In this document: piece after piece, positions 7,923 to 62,168 of the stretch
Layout: every line of letters starts with the position of its first letter
How positions within the stretch are numbered: position 1 is the first letter of the stretch
Translations under genes and position numbers: made by a program
The notes under the pieces: generated by a model
The model's database searches: none
What the model was told of the DNA's origin: nothing
The model's input: only the letters and a program-made list of their open reading frames with translations
NCBI GenBank assembly: GCA_964396895.1
Contig: CAYNGJ010000015.1
Location: 33,831 to 97,830, forward strand
Length of the DNA stretch: 64,000 nucleotides
Direction: 5' to 3'
Source: an uncultured Hydrogenophaga sp.
Lineage (GTDB): Bacteria > Pseudomonadota > Gammaproteobacteria > Burkholderiales > Burkholderiaceae_C

Positions 7923-7944
7923 GGGGAATATCCCCATTTTTTTT
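7923..7944 (+). terminator. weak hairpin plus T8 run (possible intrinsic terminator)
   Basis: The sequence is GGGGAATATCCCC followed by ATTTTTTTT. The stem is only 5 bp, so support is weak. Confidence 0.3.
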
Positions 7945-7948
7945 GAGT

Positions 7949-7990
7949 AAAAAATGCCTCTAGCGCTTTGCTGGCATTGATTCAGTGCTA
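7949..7990 (+). repeat. AT-rich dispersed repeat, copy R1a (left arm of an inverted doublet)
   Basis: AAAAAATGCCTCTAGCGCTTTGCTGGCATTGATTCAGTGCTA. It shares the A5-GCCTCY-AGCGCTT ... AGCTA layout with the other copies. Confidence 0.85.
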
Positions 7991-8006
7991 TATATATTAA
8001 TATTTG

Positions 8007-8048
8007 TAGCTGACTGTTGTTATGCATAAAGCGCTGGATAGTGTTTTT
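8007..8048 (-). repeat. AT-rich dispersed repeat, copy R1b (right arm of an inverted doublet)
   Basis: The reverse complement reads AAAAACACTATCCAGCGCTTTATGCATAACAACAGTCAGCTA. It lies tail-to-tail with R1a across a 16-nt AT spacer. Confidence 0.85.
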
Positions 8049-8517
8049 ATGCTGATTTTCCGGGCTGAGGTGTGCTCGCCCCCATCGCCCCCCCGTAGCA
8101 CTTTTTGTACTTCTTGCCGCTGCTGCAGCGGCACGGGTCGTTGCGGCCCGGCATGGCAGGCTGGTAGGAGACGTCGTCGTCCAGCGTCGTCACGGGGGTG
8201 TCCAGCGCGTGCCTCACGGCGTGCCAGCGGTGTTCCCGTCGTGGGCCGGTGTTGGCCGGGACACATCCACATCCTGCTCGAAGAGCGGGAGCGGCCGTTT
8301 GAAGTGGCTGACGCCGCGCTGTGCGCCCCACCACCAGTGGGTGCGCGCACGCCCGGTGGTGCAACGCGTGTGGCGTGAAGAAGGCCACCGATGACCCTGA
8401 CACACACCGTGAACATGACCGACCGCTTGCCCGACATCCTGACCCACAACCGTGTGCTCCTGCCTCACTCTGACCAACCGGGCAAGTGTGGCGCCAACAC
8501 AGGCCGGCTTGCCGCAC
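8047..8517 (-). CDS. SEC-C motif-containing ORF (N-terminal extent doubtful; possibly decayed)
   Basis: The C-terminus NDPCRCSSGKKYKKCYGG is a SEC-C type zinc motif. The upstream two-thirds of the ORF is Arg/Cys/Gly-rich and does not look protein-like. The stop codon lies inside repeat R1b. Confidence 0.3.
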   Translation of the reverse strand: MRQAGLCWRHTCPVGQSEAGAHGCGSGCRASGRSCSRCVSGSSVAFFTPHALHHRACAHPLVVGRTARRQPLQTAAPALRAGCGCVPANTGPRREHRWHAVRHALDTPVTTLDDDVSYQPAMPGRNDPCRCSSGKKYKKCYGGAMGASTPQPGKSA

Positions 8518-16161: not shown

Positions 16162-18057
16162 ATGAGCAACTATGCCGATTTTTTCCGTCGCTCCGTGGAT
16201 GACAGAGATGGGTTCTGGCGCGAGCAGGCCCAATTGATCGACTGGCACAAGCCATTCGAGCAGGTGTGTGACTACACCAACCCCCCGTTTGCCAAGTGGT
16301 TCGCTGGTGGCGAAACCAACCTGTGCCACAACGCCGTGGACCGCCACTTGGCCACGCGCCCCGACCAGAATGCGCTGGTGTTTGTCTCCACTGAGACCAA
16401 CACCGAAATTGCCTACAGTTTTCGCGAACTGCACGCAGAAGTTCAGCGCATGGCAGCCATCCTGAAAGCGCTGGGCGTGGTCAAGGGTGACCGCGTGTTG
16501 ATCTACATGCCCATGATTGCTGAGGCCTGCTTTGCCATGTTGGCCTGCGCGCGCATTGGGGCGGTTCATTCTGTCGTCTTCGGCGGCTTCGCCAGCCATG
16601 CACTGGCCAGTCGCATCGACGATGCCAAACCCACCGTCATCGTCAGTGCCGACGCGGGCATGCGGGGTGGCAAGGTGGTGCCCTACAAGCACCTGTTGGA
16701 CGCAGCCATTGAGCTCGCCGCGCACAAGCCCGCCAAGGTCTTGATGGTCAACCGTGGCCTGGCCGATCTGTCGCCCGTGGATGGTCGAGACGCAGATTAC
16801 GCCAGCCTGCGTCAAACCCATCTGGACACGGTGGTGCCTTGCGAGTGGCTGGACAGCACGCACCCCAGCTACATCCTCTACACCAGCGGCACCACGGGTA
16901 AGCCCAAAGGGGTGCAGCGCGACACCGCTGGCTACGCGGTCGCCCTGGCGGCATCCATGAAGCACATCTACATGGGCGAACCGGGTGAAACCTACTTCAG
17001 CACCAGCGACATCGGCTGGGTGGTCGGACACAGTTACATCATTTATGGACCGCTGATCAACGGCATGGCCACCATCATGTACGAGGGCCTGCCCATCCGC
17101 CCCGACGCGGGTATCTGGTGGAGTTTGGTCGAGAAATACAAAGTCAGCGTCATGTTCAGTGCACCCACAGCCGCCAGGGTGCTGAAGAAGCAAGATCCCG
17201 CCTTCCTGACGAAGTACGACCTGTCCAGCCTGAAAGCGCTCTTTCTCGCAGGCGAGCCGCTGGACGAGCCCACCGCCACCTGGATTTCCGATGCCATCAG
17301 CAAACCCATCATTGACAACTACTGGCAAACGGAAACGGGCTGGCCCATCATGGCCATTTGCAATGGCGTGGAGAAAGCGCCCACCAAATTCGGCTCCCCC
17401 GGCAAAGCGGTTTACGGTTTTGATGTGCGCCTGATCGACGAAGCCACGGGTGAGGAAATCAATGAGCCCAACAAGAAAGGTGTCATTGCTGTGGAGGGGC
17501 CGTTGCCCCCAGGTTGCCTGCAAACCATTTGGGGCGACGATGAGCGCTATGTGAAGACCTATTGGTCCAGCATCCACCAGCGCATGATGTACAGCACCTT
17601 TGACTGGGGTGTGAAAGATGCAGACGGTTACTTTTTCATCTTGGGGCGCACCGACGATGTCATCAACGTTGCTGGACACCGCCTTGGCACCCGCGAGATC
17701 GAGGAAAGCATTTCCAGCCACCCCAACGTCGCTGAGGTGGCTGTGGTGGGCATCGCCGACCAACTCAAGGGTCAAGTGGCGGTGGCATTTGCCGTGCTCA
17801 AAGACCCCAGCGTGGCTGCCAGCGATGCAGACGCGCTGAAATTGGAAGGCGCCATCATGAAGGTGGTGGACGACCAACTGGGCGCGGTGGCCCGTCCGGC
17901 CAGGGTGCGTTTCGTACCGGTGTTGCCCAAAACCCGCAGCGGCAAGCTGTTGCGCCGGGCCATTCAAGCGGTGTGTGAGGGTCGCGACGCCGGCGACCTG
18001 ACCACCATGGAAGACCCCGCCGCCCTTCAGCAAATCAAGGATTCGGTCGTTCGCTGA
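16162..18057 (+). CDS. prpE: propionate--CoA ligase (acyl/acetyl-CoA synthetase family)
   Basis: The 631-aa length and the N-terminus MSNYADFFRRSV..FWREQAQLIDWHKPF..PPFAKWFAGGETNLCHNAVDRHL match the PrpE type. It also has YTSGTTGKPKG and a conserved C-terminal Lys region (PKTRSGKLLRR). Confidence 0.8.
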   Translation: MSNYADFFRRSVDDRDGFWREQAQLIDWHKPFEQVCDYTNPPFAKWFAGGETNLCHNAVDRHLATRPDQNALVFVSTETNTEIAYSFRELHAEVQRMAAILKALGVVKGDRVLIYMPMIAEACFAMLACARIGAVHSVVFGGFASHALASRIDDAKPTVIVSADAGMRGGKVVPYKHLLDAAIELAAHKPAKVLMVNRGLADLSPVDGRDADYASLRQTHLDTVVPCEWLDSTHPSYILYTSGTTGKPKGVQRDTAGYAVALAASMKHIYMGEPGETYFSTSDIGWVVGHSYIIYGPLINGMATIMYEGLPIRPDAGIWWSLVEKYKVSVMFSAPTAARVLKKQDPAFLTKYDLSSLKALFLAGEPLDEPTATWISDAISKPIIDNYWQTETGWPIMAICNGVEKAPTKFGSPGKAVYGFDVRLIDEATGEEINEPNKKGVIAVEGPLPPGCLQTIWGDDERYVKTYWSSIHQRMMYSTFDWGVKDADGYFFILGRTDDVINVAGHRLGTREIEESISSHPNVAEVAVVGIADQLKGQVAVAFAVLKDPSVAASDADALKLEGAIMKVVDDQLGAVARPARVRFVPVLPKTRSGKLLRRAIQAVCEGRDAGDLTTMEDPAALQQIKDSVVR

Positions 18058-18067
18058 ATTTATTGAT

Positions 18068-18122
18068 AAAAATGGCACCTGTCGCTTACGAAATAAGCTT
18101 CAGGTGCTTTTTTATTGGTAGC
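18068..18122 (+). repeat. AT-rich repeat copy R3, folded as a hairpin plus T-run (a likely terminator for prpE)
   Basis: AAAAATGGCACCTGTCGCTTACGAAATAAGCTTCAGGTGCTTTTTTATTGGTAGC. The stem is GCACCTG/CAGGTGC (18075-18107) and T6 follows. Confidence 0.7.
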
Positions 18123-18641: not shown

Positions 18642-18926
18642 GCCTGGACCAGGCGTCTAGTCATCGGTTGCTTGGCTCGCAGACGTCGACGCCTGCCTGA
18701 CAAACACCTGACCGGTAGCAGGCCAGCAACACTGAACGTGCTCTTGTTTTTTTATCGGCATACGCCACAGATTTCTTGCACTTGCCTGCTTGCAGGTGAG
18801 ACAATATCGAGTTGCAGAACTTGGCCCTTCCTGTCACAGTCGCATCCGCCCAACGGTACAGCCGTGTCGCGGAAGGTTTCTTAACCAGCTCATGTTTCCC
18901 AGAGGGAGACGGAGGTCAGCGAAACA

Positions 18927-35108: not shown

Positions 35109-36407
35109 ATGGCCGAAAAAATCACCGCCGTCAAAGGCATGAATGACATTCTCCCTGCCGATTCGGCGGGCTGGGAATGGTTGGAGCAACACCTGCGCAC
35201 CCTCATGGTGGCCTATGGCTACCGCAACATGCGCACACCCATTGTCGAACCCACGGCGCTGTTTGTTCGTGGCCTGGGCGAAGTGACCGACATCGTGGAA
35301 AAGGAGATGTACTCCTTCGAGGACAGGCTGAATGGCGAGGCACTCACCCTCAGGCCAGAGAACACCGCAGGGGTGGTGCGTGCCGTGGTGGAGCACTCCA
35401 TGCTGTACGAAGGTGGCAAGCGGTTGTATTACATGGGGCCCATGTTTCGGCACGAAAAGCCCCAACGCGGGCGCTACCGGCAGTTTCACCAGTTTGGCGC
35501 CGAGGCCTTGGGGTTTGCCGGGCCTGACGTGGATGCAGAGCTCATCCTCATGGCCTGCGACCTGTGGCAACGCCTGGGTCTGCGGGGGATTCGGCTGGAG
35601 ATCAACAGTTTGGGCCAGCCTGCGGAGCGTCTGCAGCACCGGCAGGCCCTGATCAGTCATTTCGAGGCGCATGCCGACGTGCTGGACGAGGACGCCCGTC
35701 GCCGTCTGCACAGCAATCCCTTGCGCATTCTGGACACCAAAAACCCCGCTATGCAGGCCATGGTCAACTCGGCCCCTCGCCTGATGGACTGTCTGGGCGA
35801 AGCGTCACTGGCCCATTTCAACGGCCTGCGCGCCATCCTGGATGCCAATGGCGTGGCCTACACCATCAACCCCCGACTGGTGCGGGGCATGGATTACTAC
35901 AACCTGTCGGTGTTTGAGTTTGTGACCGACCAGTTGGGGGCGCAGGGCACAGTGTGTGCCGGCGGCCGCTACGATGGCTTGGTGGCCCAGGTGGGCGGCA
36001 AGCCCGCACCGGCGGTGGGTTGGGCATTGGGCATGGAGCGCATTCTCGAATTGCTCAAGGTGGACAGCCTGTTGCCCGCGCCCCAGCCAGTGGACGTGTT
36101 TGCCGTGGTGCCGGATGCGTCTGCCGCGCCTGTTGTGGCACGCGTGTTGCGCGCACTGCGGCAGCAGGGTGTGAACGTGCAAATGCACGCAGCGGGCGCG
36201 GACGGCCAGGGCAGCATGAAGTCCCAGTTCAAAAAGGCGGATGCCAGCCAGGCACCGTTTGCCCTGATTTTTGGCCAAGACGAATTGTCACAACAGCGGG
36301 TGGCCCTCAAACCCCTGCGCGCCGATGCCGATGGCAATGCGGGCGCCCAGCGCCTGCTGGACTTGGCCACCGTTGACCATTGGGCCGCTGAACTGAAGCG
36401 GTCCTGA
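35109..36407 (+). CDS. hisS: histidine--tRNA ligase
   Basis: Supporting motifs are [33 protein letters not shown] and AGGRYDGL. Confidence 0.97.
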
Positions 36408-36470
36408 CCATTTTCGGGTGCGGAGCCCTTCCCACCTAGAATCCCTCACTTCCACCACCACGTACCTTTC

Positions 36471-37133
36471 ATGGCCCAAAGTCTCGATCTCGAAGAACAG
36501 GAACAGCTTGACCAGATCAAGCACTTCTGGAAACGCTACGGCAACCTCATCACCTGGGTGCTGCTGGCCGCCAGCGTGTCCTTTGCTGCGTGGAATGGCT
36601 GGCAGTTCTGGCAGCACAAGCAGGCCTCGGGCGCAGCCGTCCTGTTCGATGAAATCGAAAGGGCCGTGGCGGACAAGGACGCCACCCGCATGGAGCGCAC
36701 CCTGACTGACATGAAGGCGCAATTTGGCAGCACGGTCTATGCCCAGCAGGGGGCTTTGCTGGCTGCGCATGGCCTGTCCGCCGCAGGCGATGCCCCCAAA
36801 GCCCGGCAGGCCCTGGAATGGGCCGCCGGGCAAAACAAGGACGAAGGCCTGCAGGCGATTGCCCGCCTGCGTCTGGCGGGTTTGCTGATGGAAAATGGCA
36901 CCCCCGAAGAGGCCAAAAAGTCGCTGGAGGCGACCATGCCCACTGCCTTCGAGGGCCTGCTGGCGGATCGCCAGGGCGACCTGCACCTGCGGGCCGGTCA
37001 GTCTGACCAGGCCCGTCAAGCCTACCTCAAGGCCTACCAACTGCTGGCCGACACCACGGAGTACCGTCGCCTGGTGGAAATCAAGCTCAACGCACTGGGC
37101 GTGGACCCCACACCGGCCGCCGCCAAGTCATGA
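36471..37133 (+). CDS. YfgM-family membrane-anchored TPR-like protein
   Basis: The N-terminus EEQEQLDQIKHFWKRYGNLITWVLLAA is followed by a TM segment. It occupies the conserved position between hisS and bamB. Confidence 0.8.
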   Translation: MAQSLDLEEQEQLDQIKHFWKRYGNLITWVLLAASVSFAAWNGWQFWQHKQASGAAVLFDEIERAVADKDATRMERTLTDMKAQFGSTVYAQQGALLAAHGLSAAGDAPKARQALEWAAGQNKDEGLQAIARLRLAGLLMENGTPEEAKKSLEATMPTAFEGLLADRQGDLHLRAGQSDQARQAYLKAYQLLADTTEYRRLVEIKLNALGVDPTPAAAKS

Positions 37134-38284
37134 CCCATCATAATTTGAGGAAAAATATGCCTCTAGCGCTTATATATAAAGGCTTTTCAGCTATTGTTAT
37201 TGCAAGCGCCTTGGTGGCATGCTCCTCATCGGGCAACCGACCCAAGCCAGCCGAGCTGACCCCTTTGCTGCCCATGATGTCGGTGCGCCAGGTTTGGGTG
37301 AACCCGGTGGGCGCCAGTGCCACCCCCATGACGCTCTCGGTGAACGGTGACCGCGTGTCCGTCGCCTCCGGCAACGGTACCGTGGCCCAGGTGGATGTGA
37401 ACACCGGTGCCGATGTCTGGCGCGTGGTCTTGGGCACGCCGCTGTCTGCGGGCGTCGGTTCTGATGGCCACATGGCCGCAGTCGTCAGCCAACGCAACGA
37501 CCTGATTGCGCTGGTGGCGGGCAAAGAAGTGTGGCGCCAGCGCTTGCCCTCGGCCGCCTACACCGCGCCATTGGTGGCCGGGCAACGGGTGTTTGTGCTG
37601 GGCGCAGACCGCTCTGTCACCGCGTTTGACGGCAACTCAGGCGCCCGTTTGTGGACCCAGTCCCGCACTGGCGAACCGCTGGTGCTTCGCCAGTCTGGCG
37701 TGCTGCTCGCGGTGGGCGACACACTGGTGGCGGGTTTGGGTGGCCGCATGGTTGGATTCAACCCCAACAACGGCAACACCCGCTGGGACGTGCAGCTCGC
37801 CGTGCCCAAAGGTGCCAATGACATCGAGCGCATGGTGGATTTGGTGGGCCCCATCAGCCGCGCTGGCAATGAGGTCTGCGCGCGCGCTTTCCAGACCGCA
37901 ATTGCCTGCGTCGACGCCCAGCGTGGTCGCCTGAAATGGACACAAGCCGCCGATGGCCGCAGTGGCCTGGGCGGAGACGAGCGCTGGCTGTTTGGTGCTG
38001 AGTCTGATGGGCGAGTCGTCGCTTGGCAGCGCGACACTGGCCAAAAGGCTTGGACATACTCTGGTCTGCTGCACCGTAACGCCCTCAGCCCCTTGCTGCT
38101 GGGCCGCTCACTGGCCACTGCAGACGGGTTCGGTTTTATTCACCTGCTGTCCCGGGAAGACGGCAGTCCCATGGCCCGCCTGACCACCGATGGTTCCCCC
38201 ATCCACACCGCCCCTGTGCTGGCCGGTGACACCCTGCTGGCCCTCACGCAAAATGGCAATATGTTTGCCTGGCGTCCACAATAA
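37130..38284 (+). CDS. bamB: outer membrane protein assembly factor BamB
   Basis: It has a lipoprotein signal peptide (..IASALVACSS) and PQQ-like beta-propeller repeats. The start is ATG 37130 (ATGA overlap with yfgM) or ATG 37157. Confidence 0.92.
   Translation: MTHHNLRKNMPLALIYKGFSAIVIASALVACSSSGNRPKPAELTPLLPMMSVRQVWVNPVGASATPMTLSVNGDRVSVASGNGTVAQVDVNTGADVWRVVLGTPLSAGVGSDGHMAAVVSQRNDLIALVAGKEVWRQRLPSAAYTAPLVAGQRVFVLGADRSVTAFDGNSGARLWTQSRTGEPLVLRQSGVLLAVGDTLVAGLGGRMVGFNPNNGNTRWDVQLAVPKGANDIERMVDLVGPISRAGNEVCARAFQTAIACVDAQRGRLKWTQAADGRSGLGGDERWLFGAESDGRVVAWQRDTGQKAWTYSGLLHRNALSPLLLGRSLATADGFGFIHLLSREDGSPMARLTTDGSPIHTAPVLAGDTLLALTQNGNMFAWRPQ
37151..37202 (+). repeat. AT-rich repeat copy R5, lying inside the bamB signal-peptide coding region
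   Basis: AAAAATATGCCTCTAGCGCTTATATATAAAGGCTTTTCAGCTATTGTTATTG is translated as (K)NMPLALIYKGFSAIVI. Confidence 0.85.
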
Positions 38285-38323
38285 CGGACCACTCGGTCCA
38301 ACCACTACCCGAATTTTTCAGTT

Positions 38324-39661
38324 TTGAAACCCGTTCTGGCCCTCGTCGGGCGCCCCAATGTGGGCAAATCCACCCTGTTCAACCGCCTGACCAAGTCCAG
38401 GGATGCCATCGTGGCCGATTTCGCCGGCCTCACGCGCGATCGGCACTACGGCAATGGCCGGTTGGGCAACCGCGAGTTCATCGTGGTCGACACCGGTGGA
38501 TTTGAACCCGATGCCGGTGACGGCAGCATCTACAAGGAAATGGCGAAGCAAACCCGCCAAGCGGTGGCCGAGGCAGACGTGGTCATGTTTGTGGTGGATG
38601 CCCGCGCCGGTGTCAGTGCCCAAGACCACGACATTGCCAACTACCTTCGGCGGCTGGGCAAGCCCTGTTTGCTGGTGGCCAACAAGGCCGAGGGCATGCA
38701 GGACGGTGTCAAATTGTCCGAGTTCTTTGAGCTGGGTTTGGGCGAAGTGCTGGCCGTGTCGGCCTCCCATGGCCAGGGTGTTCGCTCCCTGACCGAAGTG
38801 GCCCTGGACCTGTTGCCACCGGTGCCGGAAGACGATGACACCCCCGAAGACCCCAGCGTGATCAAGCTCGCCGTGGCCGGTCGGCCCAACGTGGGCAAGA
38901 GCACACTCATCAATGCTTGGCTGGGAGAGGAGCGTCTGGTGGCCTACGACATGCCGGGCACCACGCGCGACGCCATTTCCATCCCGTTTGAGCGCGACGG
39001 CCGCAAATTCGAACTGATCGACACGGCTGGCATACGCCGCAAGGGCAAGGTGTTTGAGGCCATTGAGAAATTCTCCGTCGTCAAAACCCTGCAAGCCATC
39101 GAAAACGCCCATGTGGTGTTGCTGCTGTTGGATGCCACGCAGGGGGTGACCGAGCAGGACGCGCACATCGCTGGCTTCATTTTGGAGAGCGGGCGGGCGG
39201 TGGTGCTGGCCATCAACAAATGGGATGCCGTGGACGAGTACCAGCGGCAGGTGGTGGAGCGGTCGGTTGAACAGCGCTTGGCCTTCATGAAGTTCGCCGC
39301 CATGCACCTCATTTCTGCCAAAAAACGGCAGGGACTGGCCCCGGTCTGGAAGTCCATCGCCCAGGCCCACGAAGCTGCGAACCGGAAAATGCCCACCCCC
39401 GTGCTGACCCGCCTGCTGCTGGAAGCGCTGCAATTTCAGGCGCCACAACGGGGTGGCATGTACCGGCCCAAGCCACGGTACGCGCACCAGGGTGGCATGA
39501 ACCCACCGGTGATCGTCATCCATGGCAACTCGCTGGAAAACATCACCGAGTCGTACAAGCGTTTTCTGGAAGGACGTTTCCGCAAAGCCTTTGACTTGGT
39601 GGGTACGCCACTGCGGATTGAGATGAAAACCTCGGACAATCCCTACAAAGACCAAGATTGA
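38324..39661 (+). CDS. der: ribosome biogenesis GTPase Der (EngA)
   Basis: It has two GTPase domains ([12 protein letters not shown] and [12 protein letters not shown]) and a KH-like C-terminus. Confidence 0.97.
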
Positions 39662-43843: not shown

Positions 43844-46425
<2,582 letters not shown>

Positions 46426-46433
46426 TTTTTAAC

Positions 46434-46483
46434 AAAAAGTGCACTCAGCGCTTTATTTATAAGCATTGTTAGCTACTTATTTT
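46434..46483 (+). repeat. AT-rich repeat copy R6 (purA-PRTase spacer)
   Basis: AAAAAGTGCACTCAGCGCTTTATTTATAAGCATTGTTAGCTACTTATTTT runs directly into the GGAG RBS of the next gene. Confidence 0.85.
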
Positions 46484-46493
46484 GGAGTAAGTC

Positions 46494-47018
46494 ATGTTGA
46501 CTGAAGACGGCAAGCATCTGTACGTGTCTTACGACGAGTACCACAACCTCATCGAGAAACTGGCACTCCGAATCCACCAGTCGGACTGGGAGTTCGACAC
46601 CATCCTGTGCCTGGCCCGCGGTGGCATGCGCCCGGGTGACATCCTCAGCCGGATTTTTGACAAACCCCTGGCCATCATGTCCACCAGCTCCTATCGCGCC
46701 GACGCCGGTACCGTGCAAGGCCGGTTGGACATTGCGCGCTTCATCACCACCCCCAAGGGCGAAATCGCGGGCAAGGTGCTGCTGGTGGACGACTTGGCCG
46801 ACACTGGTCACACCCTGCAGGCGGTCATCAACACCCTGAAAAACCACTATGAGCCCATCACCGAGTTGCGCAGCGCCGTGATCTGGACCAAGGGTGTCTC
46901 GACCTTCACGCCCGACTACTCGGTGGAATTCCTCCCCACCAACCCCTGGATTCACCAGCCTTTTGAAGGCTACGACAGCCTGCGCCCCGCCGCATTGCTG
47001 GAAAAGTGGAAGCTCTGA
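46494..47018 (+). CDS. phosphoribosyltransferase (Gpt-like purine PRTase)
   Basis: It has the VLLVDDLADTGHTL PRPP-binding motif and LARGGMRPG. Confidence 0.8.
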   Translation: MLTEDGKHLYVSYDEYHNLIEKLALRIHQSDWEFDTILCLARGGMRPGDILSRIFDKPLAIMSTSSYRADAGTVQGRLDIARFITTPKGEIAGKVLLVDDLADTGHTLQAVINTLKNHYEPITELRSAVIWTKGVSTFTPDYSVEFLPTNPWIHQPFEGYDSLRPAALLEKWKL

Positions 47019-62036: not shown

Positions 62037-62050
62037 TCAACAATGTGAAC

Positions 62051-62092
62051 AAAATAGCCACCCAGCTATTGATGGATATGAATTTGTAGCTA
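62051..62092 (+). repeat. AT-rich repeat copy R10a (left arm of the second inverted doublet; diverged core)
   Basis: AAAATAGCCACCCAGCTATTGATGGATATGAATTTGTAGCTA. Confidence 0.65.
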
Positions 62093-62106
62093 TAAAATTA
62101 ATTGTA

Positions 62107-62149
62107 TAGCTGACCATTCAATGACCATAAGCGCCAGAGGCTGATTTTT
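62107..62149 (-). repeat. AT-rich repeat copy R10b (right arm of the second inverted doublet)
   Basis: The reverse complement reads AAAAATCAGCCTCTGGCGCTTATGGTCATTGAATGGTCAGCTA. It is separated from R10a by a 14-nt AT spacer. Confidence 0.85.
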
Positions 62150-62168
62150 CGTATTTTTTGACGGGACA

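Follow-up and report, generated by a model that had tools for sequence, protein, structure and literature searches.

What is a copy of a small dispersed repeat doing at the very beginning of a conserved lipoprotein gene, inside its reading frame? The question is raised by bamB in a stretch of 64,000 nt from an uncultured Hydrogenophaga sp. (the whole of which is called the window here), where the G+C content, about 62% over the window, falls to 30% in a 60-nt stretch at the 5' end of the gene. The answer that we consider best, with a probability of roughly three in four, is that an ancient repeat landed at the junction of yfgM and bamB and came to serve as the front end of the latter. A small Comamonadaceae repeat, about 65 nt long, AT-rich and with two palindromes, would have inserted at this junction in a distant ancestor. 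Its A-rich 5' part would have become the ribosome-binding region and the start codon, and its remainder, translated in frame, would have provided the n- and h-regions of a lipoprotein signal peptide, which ends in the native lipobox LVAC and would be removed by signal peptidase II after lipidation. Small repeats translated in frame are already known; what would be new here is the recruitment of such a repeat as translation start and lipoprotein leader.

A repeat copy inside the bamB reading frame

The open reading frame at 37130-38284 encodes BamB, scoring 315.3 bits against TIGR03300 (outer membrane protein assembly factor; equivalog cut-off 285.2) and matching PF13360, the PQQ-like beta-propeller, with 3e-61. 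The repeat at its 5' end belongs to a family of which six copies in the window align across about 70 nt, sharing an A-run, GCCTCYRGCGCTT, a variable stretch, gTCAGCTAca and a T-rich end, with a gap of 15 nt between GCCTCYRGCGCTT and TCAGCTA (17 nt to AGCTA). For the pattern GCGCTTW-N(8-30)-AGCTA, 0.03 occurrences are expected in the window and five were counted, one of them at 37166-37193 within bamB; the span from GCGCTT to AGCTA is 28 nt in five out of five copies matching the pattern. Scanning public metagenomes with the core pattern yielded 120 further copies, and none of these metagenome loci encodes BamB. The family element is about 65 nt long and AT-rich, with the consensus aaATTTcaAGccAAATtGGCCTCYAGCGCTTA..TAAGCGCTaTCAGCTATcaATTtgaTAGCA or, in the fuller form derived from the metagenome copies, aaATTTcaAGccAAATtGGCCTCYAGCGCTTAtccagTAAGCGCTaTCAGCTATcaATTtgaTAGCAa. 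Two short palindromes are contained in it (AGCGCTTA/TAAGCGCT and GCTATCA/TGATAGC), in which 77.6% of the cells are paired, versus 26-45% when the partner is slid; covariation in these two palindromes did not rise above that in shuffles. The family was found on plasmids of Diaphorobacter, Acidovorax and Comamonas and can therefore be regarded as a Comamonadaceae family. Rfam has no family for the element: in the window only the sucA motif was recovered, and in nine loci with canonical copies nothing was found at the elements. In the literature, the core sequences were not found in any paper, nor was anything found on Comamonadaceae repeats or on dispersed repeats forming signal peptides.

That 37139-37203 is a true copy of this dispersed family was confirmed with two profiles, both of which had been built without the bamB copy. 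The profile from the five other window copies matches at 37142-37201 (21.6 bits, E=3e-5), and the one from 58 metagenome copies matches at 37139-37203 (nhmmer, 31.4 bits, E=1.8e-8). The latter score is inflated, as the bamB copy is an exact fit to the pattern by which the metagenome copies had been fished out; the alignment to the 58-copy profile agrees also in the flanks outside this pattern, including AATTTGAGGAAAAAT versus aaATTTtaAGtcAAAT. The stretch 'ATTTGAGG/ATTTCAAG', in the region of a GAGG resembling a Shine-Dalgarno (SD) sequence, is likewise part of the family consensus. A first-pass annotation of this DNA had read the sequence and translation of the bamB 5' end correctly and had recognised a repeat copy there, but the limits given for it (37151-37202) are too short; the element begins at about 37139 and includes the GAGG at 37147-37150.

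The open frame through the element stands out by its codon usage. G+C at third codon positions (GC3) amounts to 0.23 in the codons of the element, whereas the remainder of bamB reaches 0.75 and ten other genes, over their first 22 codons, show values of 0.50-0.82. The element uses CTA, which is found in none of 4584 reference codons, and ATA (0.2 per 1000), together with CTT and TCA, which are otherwise nearly unused.

Signal peptide and start codon

Read from the ATG at 37157, the protein starts MPLALIYKGFSAIVIASALVAC; read from the ATG at 37130, it starts MTHHNLRKNMPLAL... Under either start model, the start region and most of the leader are supplied by the element, which, besides the SD-like GAGG and the ATG at 37157, holds the codons for MPLALIYKGFSAIVIA, and which encodes 15 of the 21 residues preceding the lipobox Cys. 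Ordinary GC-rich leader DNA is encountered only in the S-A-L-V-A-C part (37205-37222). The earlier proposal that the repeat gives a start codon and most of the n/h-region is hence upheld, and the SD-like sequence, too, lies inside the element. The leader has Lys at -14 and the lipobox LVAC after 13 uncharged residues (mean Kyte-Doolittle value 2.25), while the long start model adds R and K further upstream of this Lys. We infer that the leader is removed by signal peptidase II because it ends in a canonical lipobox, and the first-pass annotation had soundly drawn the same conclusion. It had also seen no in-frame start between 37202 and the lipobox; in-frame TTG (37211) and GTG (37214) codons do exist downstream of 37202, but either of them would leave no signal peptide. 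To call BamB essential, on the other hand, was too strong, as the BamB of Escherichia coli is not essential.

Which of the two ATG codons serves as the main start? Most of the observations point to the one at 37157, which we regard as the probable main start of bamB. The predicted duplex with the 3' end of the 16S rRNA amounts to -5.6 kcal/mol for ATG 37157, versus -1.7 kcal/mol for ATG 37130, which has no SD sequence; the former value is similar to those of other window genes, though some genes of the window are, like 37130, without an SD sequence. A 99% identical relative (P0001, 375 aa) is called from the second ATG, equivalent to 37157. In L019, a stop is found four codons 5' of the equivalent ATG (with three sense codons between), and the element ATG is therefore its only start. 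All ten orthologues have an ATG between -21 and -25, in the A-rich part of the element, whereas an ATG at -30 is found only in the window, L012 and L013, with TTG at this position in L010 and L018. In favour of 37130, several orthologues have a Lys-Asn encoded by the A-run inside the protein, and the window matches that only when read from 37130. The TGA stop of yfgM (37131-37133) overlaps this upstream candidate (ATGA). The ambiguity has consequences for annotation, 384 versus 375 residues being called in near-identical strains.

The organism was met in 24 sequencing runs, all of them DNA metagenomes, four of which were used for strain variants. In these four, the only strain variation in the leader region is 37134 C>T, Thr2Ile of the long model, and neither a frameshift nor a stop that would decide on the start was seen in the leader extension. 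The variants 37134 C>T and 37115 G>A (the latter in yfgM) occur in two groundwater runs and in L013, the element itself being invariant. Logan contigs in one groundwater run stop on either side of the element core (37147/37168), which means that assemblies from short reads are interrupted by the repeat at the start of bamB.

Age of the element

For comparison, bamB orthologues were gathered by protein search, followed by retrieval of the encoding DNA, and aligned on the Cys codon; a scan of genome contigs for related bamB loci had given nine loci, none of them close. The element is present in the same codon register in nine other distinct orthologues (55-85% identity) as well as in the 99% strain copy L013. 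The bearers share CCT/CTA/xCG/CTT at -20 to -17 and GCT at -10, and among them is Rhodoferax ferrireducens, which reads AAAAAACGCCTCTAGCGCATACC...CAGCAGCTATT. Polaromonas sp. C04 retains the 3' half of the element (CCTCGGGCGCTGATAGCTATTGTTTTCGTAGC) with GCT at -10, and the 10-mer AGCTATTGTT is identical between this strain and the window. Any trace of the element is absent in Acidovorax, Ramlibacter, Rubrivivax, L002, L004 and L142, where the leader DNA is GC-rich and different; that relatives devoid of the repeat might encode this leader with the same DNA, a possibility raised in the first-pass annotation, is thus not what these genomes offer.

Since its position is precisely the same in related genera, the element in bamB is, as judged from these alignments, ancient and not a recent insertion. 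A simple insertion into the bamB of this genome, as had been implied earlier, does not agree with orthologues across genera sharing the element in register. The identical register further speaks for a single event, after which the element eroded in some GC-rich lineages. In the BamB tree, a clade with 100/100 support unites the nine or ten closest bearers, and a single origin of the bamB element is compatible with this tree. If so, the locus would represent a clean and datable case of a gene rebuilding its ribosome site, its start codon and its export signal from repeat DNA, and a patch derived from a repeat could persist over an evolutionary span reaching from genus to family.

Several observations speak against an ancient insertion of this kind. 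Rhodoferax and Polaromonas are placed outside the main bearer clade, with Acidovorax, Ramlibacter and L142 between, although these forks are unsupported in what is a single-gene tree. Whether or not they contain the element, all Burkholderiales BamB leaders examined have their last basic residue at -14 from the Cys, followed by 13 uncharged residues; the leader is no longer than in the element-free relatives, whereas a plain insertion of 65 nt predicts lengthening. An empty bamB site was not found, arrival by insertion being deduced from family membership, and both the start codon and the cleavage are predictions from sequence, all runs with the organism being DNA. As to the unchanged length, the old leader may have been swapped at the same length, selection may have trimmed the leader, or the event may predate all of the sampled lineages.

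Conservation beyond the encoded peptide

Synonymous sites in the mature part of bamB are saturated: among ten orthologues, a single codon is retained in none of the 118 columns with an invariant residue, and just 2.6% of the columns have an invariant third position, which is G or C in nearly all cases. The leader shows another picture. Codon -18 is xCG in all ten orthologues though the residue varies between A, S, T and P, while only one of 127 variable mature columns keeps two positions in this manner. Codon -17 is CTT in 8/10, with T at the third position in 9/10; codon -10 is GCT in 10/10, versus none of nine invariant mature Ala columns that keep one codon; and codon -8 has T at its third position in 10/10. 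These conserved leader codons coincide exactly with the core blocks of the family (CGCTT; GCT), and it is these two blocks, too, that are conserved in a non-coding copy in the spacer between purA and a phosphoribosyltransferase gene (prt) in five lineages. Because its AT-richness and its intact cores outlast the neutral sites in bamB, the element is under selection in place; the minimum is selection for a translation start that is AT-rich and unstructured, to which a function of the element itself may be added. Selection for AT-rich, weakly folded starts and for rare leader codons is known in general. The CG of codon -18 favours a function of its own over the AT-rich start. That the copy is tolerated because its peptide is discarded is therefore half of the story at best, the core nucleotides being conserved beyond what the peptide needs.

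It is conceivable, though we hold it for rather doubtful, that the element in bamB still acts as a cis element on DNA or RNA, which would add to its ancient recruitment as the bamB front end and not replace it. It could be a bipartite site, CGCTT - 17-18 nt - AGCTA, for a protein encoded by the host or by the element, or a structure that sets the translation of bamB or uncouples bamB from yfgM. The retention of leader codons -18, -17, -10 and -8 against a saturated mature gene would be explained by such a role, as would the conservation of the same blocks in the non-coding purA-prt copy. When bamB copies are compared with purA-prt copies, the core blocks are slightly more alike within than between genomes (3/120 permutations), but the columns were chosen post hoc, and over the whole element no signal of concerted evolution remains (52/120). 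The known selection on gene starts could by itself keep the codons ending in T. The 3' arms of the palindromes are decayed in the bamB copy of the window, the RNA fold of 37125-37235 is unremarkable (z=-1.6), no promoter or terminator was recovered within the element in a scan of 36400-38400, and neither an Rfam family nor covariation above shuffles lends further weight. A long hairpin pairing the SD sequence and the ATG with downstream sequence was considered and dropped, with the z of the fold as given and a partner that is not conserved in L010. Upon inspection, sigma-70, sigma-54 or extracytoplasmic-function (ECF) promoters, a site for integration host factor (IHF) and a DnaA box were likewise set aside, as hexamers misfit or columns are unconserved.

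A more specific version, to which we attach slightly less credence still, holds that the cores CGCTT and AGCT, which are separated by two helical turns, persist as the recognition site of a trans-acting factor or as an RNA signal while at the same time encoding a signal peptide, and that the same applies to other orthologously conserved copies, such as the one in the purA-prt spacer. If this were true, the repeat family would be an old network of cis elements at operon junctions, maintained by the host, rather than selfish DNA. The conservation of the cores beyond coding is in any case a testable hint that Comamonadaceae repeats serve their host.

Other copies and the mobility of the family

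The spacer between purA and the phosphoribosyltransferase gene is wholly filled by a repeat copy, and five lineages retain this copy at that site (Table 1). Its 3' end (TTTTGGAGTAA) carries the SD sequence of the next gene, in the position that the 3' arm of palindrome 2 occupies in canonical copies. In Rhodoferax ferrireducens (L020 7921-7999), an extra canonical copy is located in the ispG-hisS spacer, in that lineage only; the spacer measures 79 nt there, while that of seven other genomes has 22-32 nt, and on both sides of the copy stands GATTTA, a possible target-site duplication. On account of this extra copy, the family is, or has been, mobile. Palindrome 1 of the copy reads GCGCATA/TATGCGC, a variant also present in the bamB copy of the same genome.

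Copies inside genes are not restricted to bamB. In metagenome contigs, open frames run through family copies in UvrA, PBP1C, MutL and YgiQ (confirmed with NCBIfam; Table 1), most of the in-frame metagenome copies being opposite in orientation to the bamB copy and giving peptides such as KIADSAxxVSAGGQ. On the plasmid NZ_CP049911.1 of Diaphorobacter sp. HDW4A (L143 301-360), the TGA of cobN lies inside a repeat copy, the element therefore supplying the last codons and the stop of this gene, and the ATG of a TonB-dependent receptor gene follows the copy flush. Tail-to-tail inverted doublets of the repeat, matched on both strands and resembling REPINs, are found at 7941-8063 and 62043-62161 of the window.

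Mobility invites the question whether the junction behind the yfgM stop could be a preferred target at which the element was acquired, or renewed, independently in the main bearer clade, in Rhodoferax and in Polaromonas. Repeated hits would also account for the fresh-looking cores, the single-gene tree requires three changes, the purA-prt spacer and the cobN stop are further examples of copies flush with gene ends, and the bamB copy of R. ferrireducens shares its GCGCAT variant with the ispG-hisS copy of its own genome. This shared variant, however, is a single base, the backbone forks of the tree are unsupported so that one origin is still possible, and the codon register is identical in all bearers. 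Independent hits thus appear improbable to us.

Far less probable is a chance resemblance, in which an ordinary AT-rich start and a hydrophobic leader would merely look like the repeat. It is true that gene starts and signal peptides tend to be richer in AT and to contain rare codons, and that the geometry of the leader equals that of element-free relatives, but this idea is rejected by the two profile searches, whose matches extend over 60-65 nt including flanks outside the fishing pattern, by the rarity of the pattern itself and by a GC3 far below that of other gene starts. The reverse direction, a repeat family that descends from the bamB leader and was mobilised and amplified, is the least credible of all, for although the leader geometry is ancestral and undisturbed and the Acidovorax leader begins ATGCCGCGCGCGTTG compared with ATGCCTCTAGCGCTT in the window, no bamB copy is as palindromic as the canonical ones, the family occurs in Acidovorax, Comamonas and Diaphorobacter yet is absent from the one Acidovorax bamB examined, and such small repeats are not known to arise from leaders.

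Comparison with known repeat elements

An ancient repeat as the front end of bamB invites comparison with the Rickettsia palindromic elements (RPEs), which, as far as the summary in PMC10969869 describes them, are 100-150 nt long and often lie in frame in unrelated housekeeping genes (Ogata et al. 2000). Like RPEs in this description, the present family is palindromic and dispersed, with copies in frame in UvrA, MutL, PBP1C, YgiQ, the window acylase and bamB (translation being deduced from the open frames), in parts of proteins that tolerate extra peptide. Unlike RPEs as summarised there, it is a Comamonadaceae family of about 65 nt and not an RPE member, no relation in sequence being expected, and its copy in bamB does not form an extra loop but furnishes the translation start together with the entire working part of a signal peptide, brings no lengthening and is kept across genera. 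In making in-frame fusions, the family behaves like other repeats that resemble MITEs (miniature transposable elements with inverted repeats) (PMC10969869).

With REP sequences (repetitive, palindromic and extragenic) and REPINs, which go with RAYT transposases, and with MITEs (PMC2817692, PMC10969869), the family shares its high copy number, its short length, its capability of forming hairpins and its mostly intergenic position, as well as the occurrence of some inverted doublets (those named above) and one presence/absence polymorphism with a possible target duplication of 6 nt. The family consensus, however, is without the conserved GTAG/GTGG head of REP/REPIN sequences, and terminal inverted repeats as in MITEs are not evident in it. 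From genus to genus, family copies keep their orthologous sites, a stability that is unusual for active elements.

Repeat DNA in the part of a gene that encodes a cleaved leader has a parallel in Neisseria. In the opa genes, CTCTT pentamers reportedly stand in tandem in this part, slip and thereby switch the gene on and off. The bamB element differs in being a single dispersed copy of fixed length and frame with no sign of phase variation. As a Sec/signal peptidase II lipoprotein signal peptide, the product is ordinary, with a basic n-region, an uncharged stretch of 13 residues, L-V-A-C and Ser at +2; only the DNA encoding it is unusual. Since a signal peptide needs nothing but charge, hydrophobicity and a cleavage site, such peptides may serve small repeats generally as a sink or as a source of raw material.

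Features of the locus

The features on which this account is based are collected in Table 1. The gene order around bamB is ispG-hisS-yfgM-bamB-der-hfq, which is a conserved order.

Table 1. Features of the yfgM-bamB region and further copies of the repeat family; positions refer to the window unless a locus is named
Feature	Position	Strand	Evidence or remark
yfgM-like gene (TPR_21)	36471..37133	+	PF09976, 6e-56; list of open reading frames
Upstream start candidate, long model, 31-residue leader	37130..37132	+	without SD sequence; overlaps the yfgM stop
Dispersed repeat with two palindromes, bamB copy, frame reads (H)NLRKNMPLALIYKGFSAIVIA	37139..37203	+	nhmmer profiles; GC 0.32
SD-like GAGG within the element	37147..37150	+	6 nt 5' of ATG 37157; duplex with 16S 3' end
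Element-internal ATG, favoured start, short model, 22-residue leader including the Cys	37157..37159	+	
Core block 1, GCCTCTAGCGCTT, 5' arm of palindrome 1	37159..37171	+	family-invariant
Core block 2, TCAGCTAT, 5' arm of palindrome 2	37187..37194	+	contains the GCT of codon -10
Lipobox L-V-A-C, Cys codon 37220-37222	37211..37222	+	fits [LVI][ASTVI][GAS]C
Mature BamB, 354 residues and stop	37220..38284	+	TIGR03300, PF13360
Sister repeat copy, purA-phosphoribosyltransferase spacer	46420..46494	+	comparison of orthologously conserved copies
Same spacer copy in other lineages	L010 19279-19348; L015 19296-19357; L018 19304-19368; L019 19272-19344		
In-frame copies in metagenome contigs	L081, L122/L037, L137, L077, L071		UvrA, PBP1C, MutL, YgiQ and a biotin-carboxylase-like protein (by eye)

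The mature protein has a length of 354 residues in 12 of the 16 orthologous sequences. Elsewhere in the window, a sucA RNA motif (RF01070, 82.5 bits) was identified at 18840-18921, 5' of sucA, and a weak copy of the repeat is situated at 18052-18115, right behind the preceding gene.

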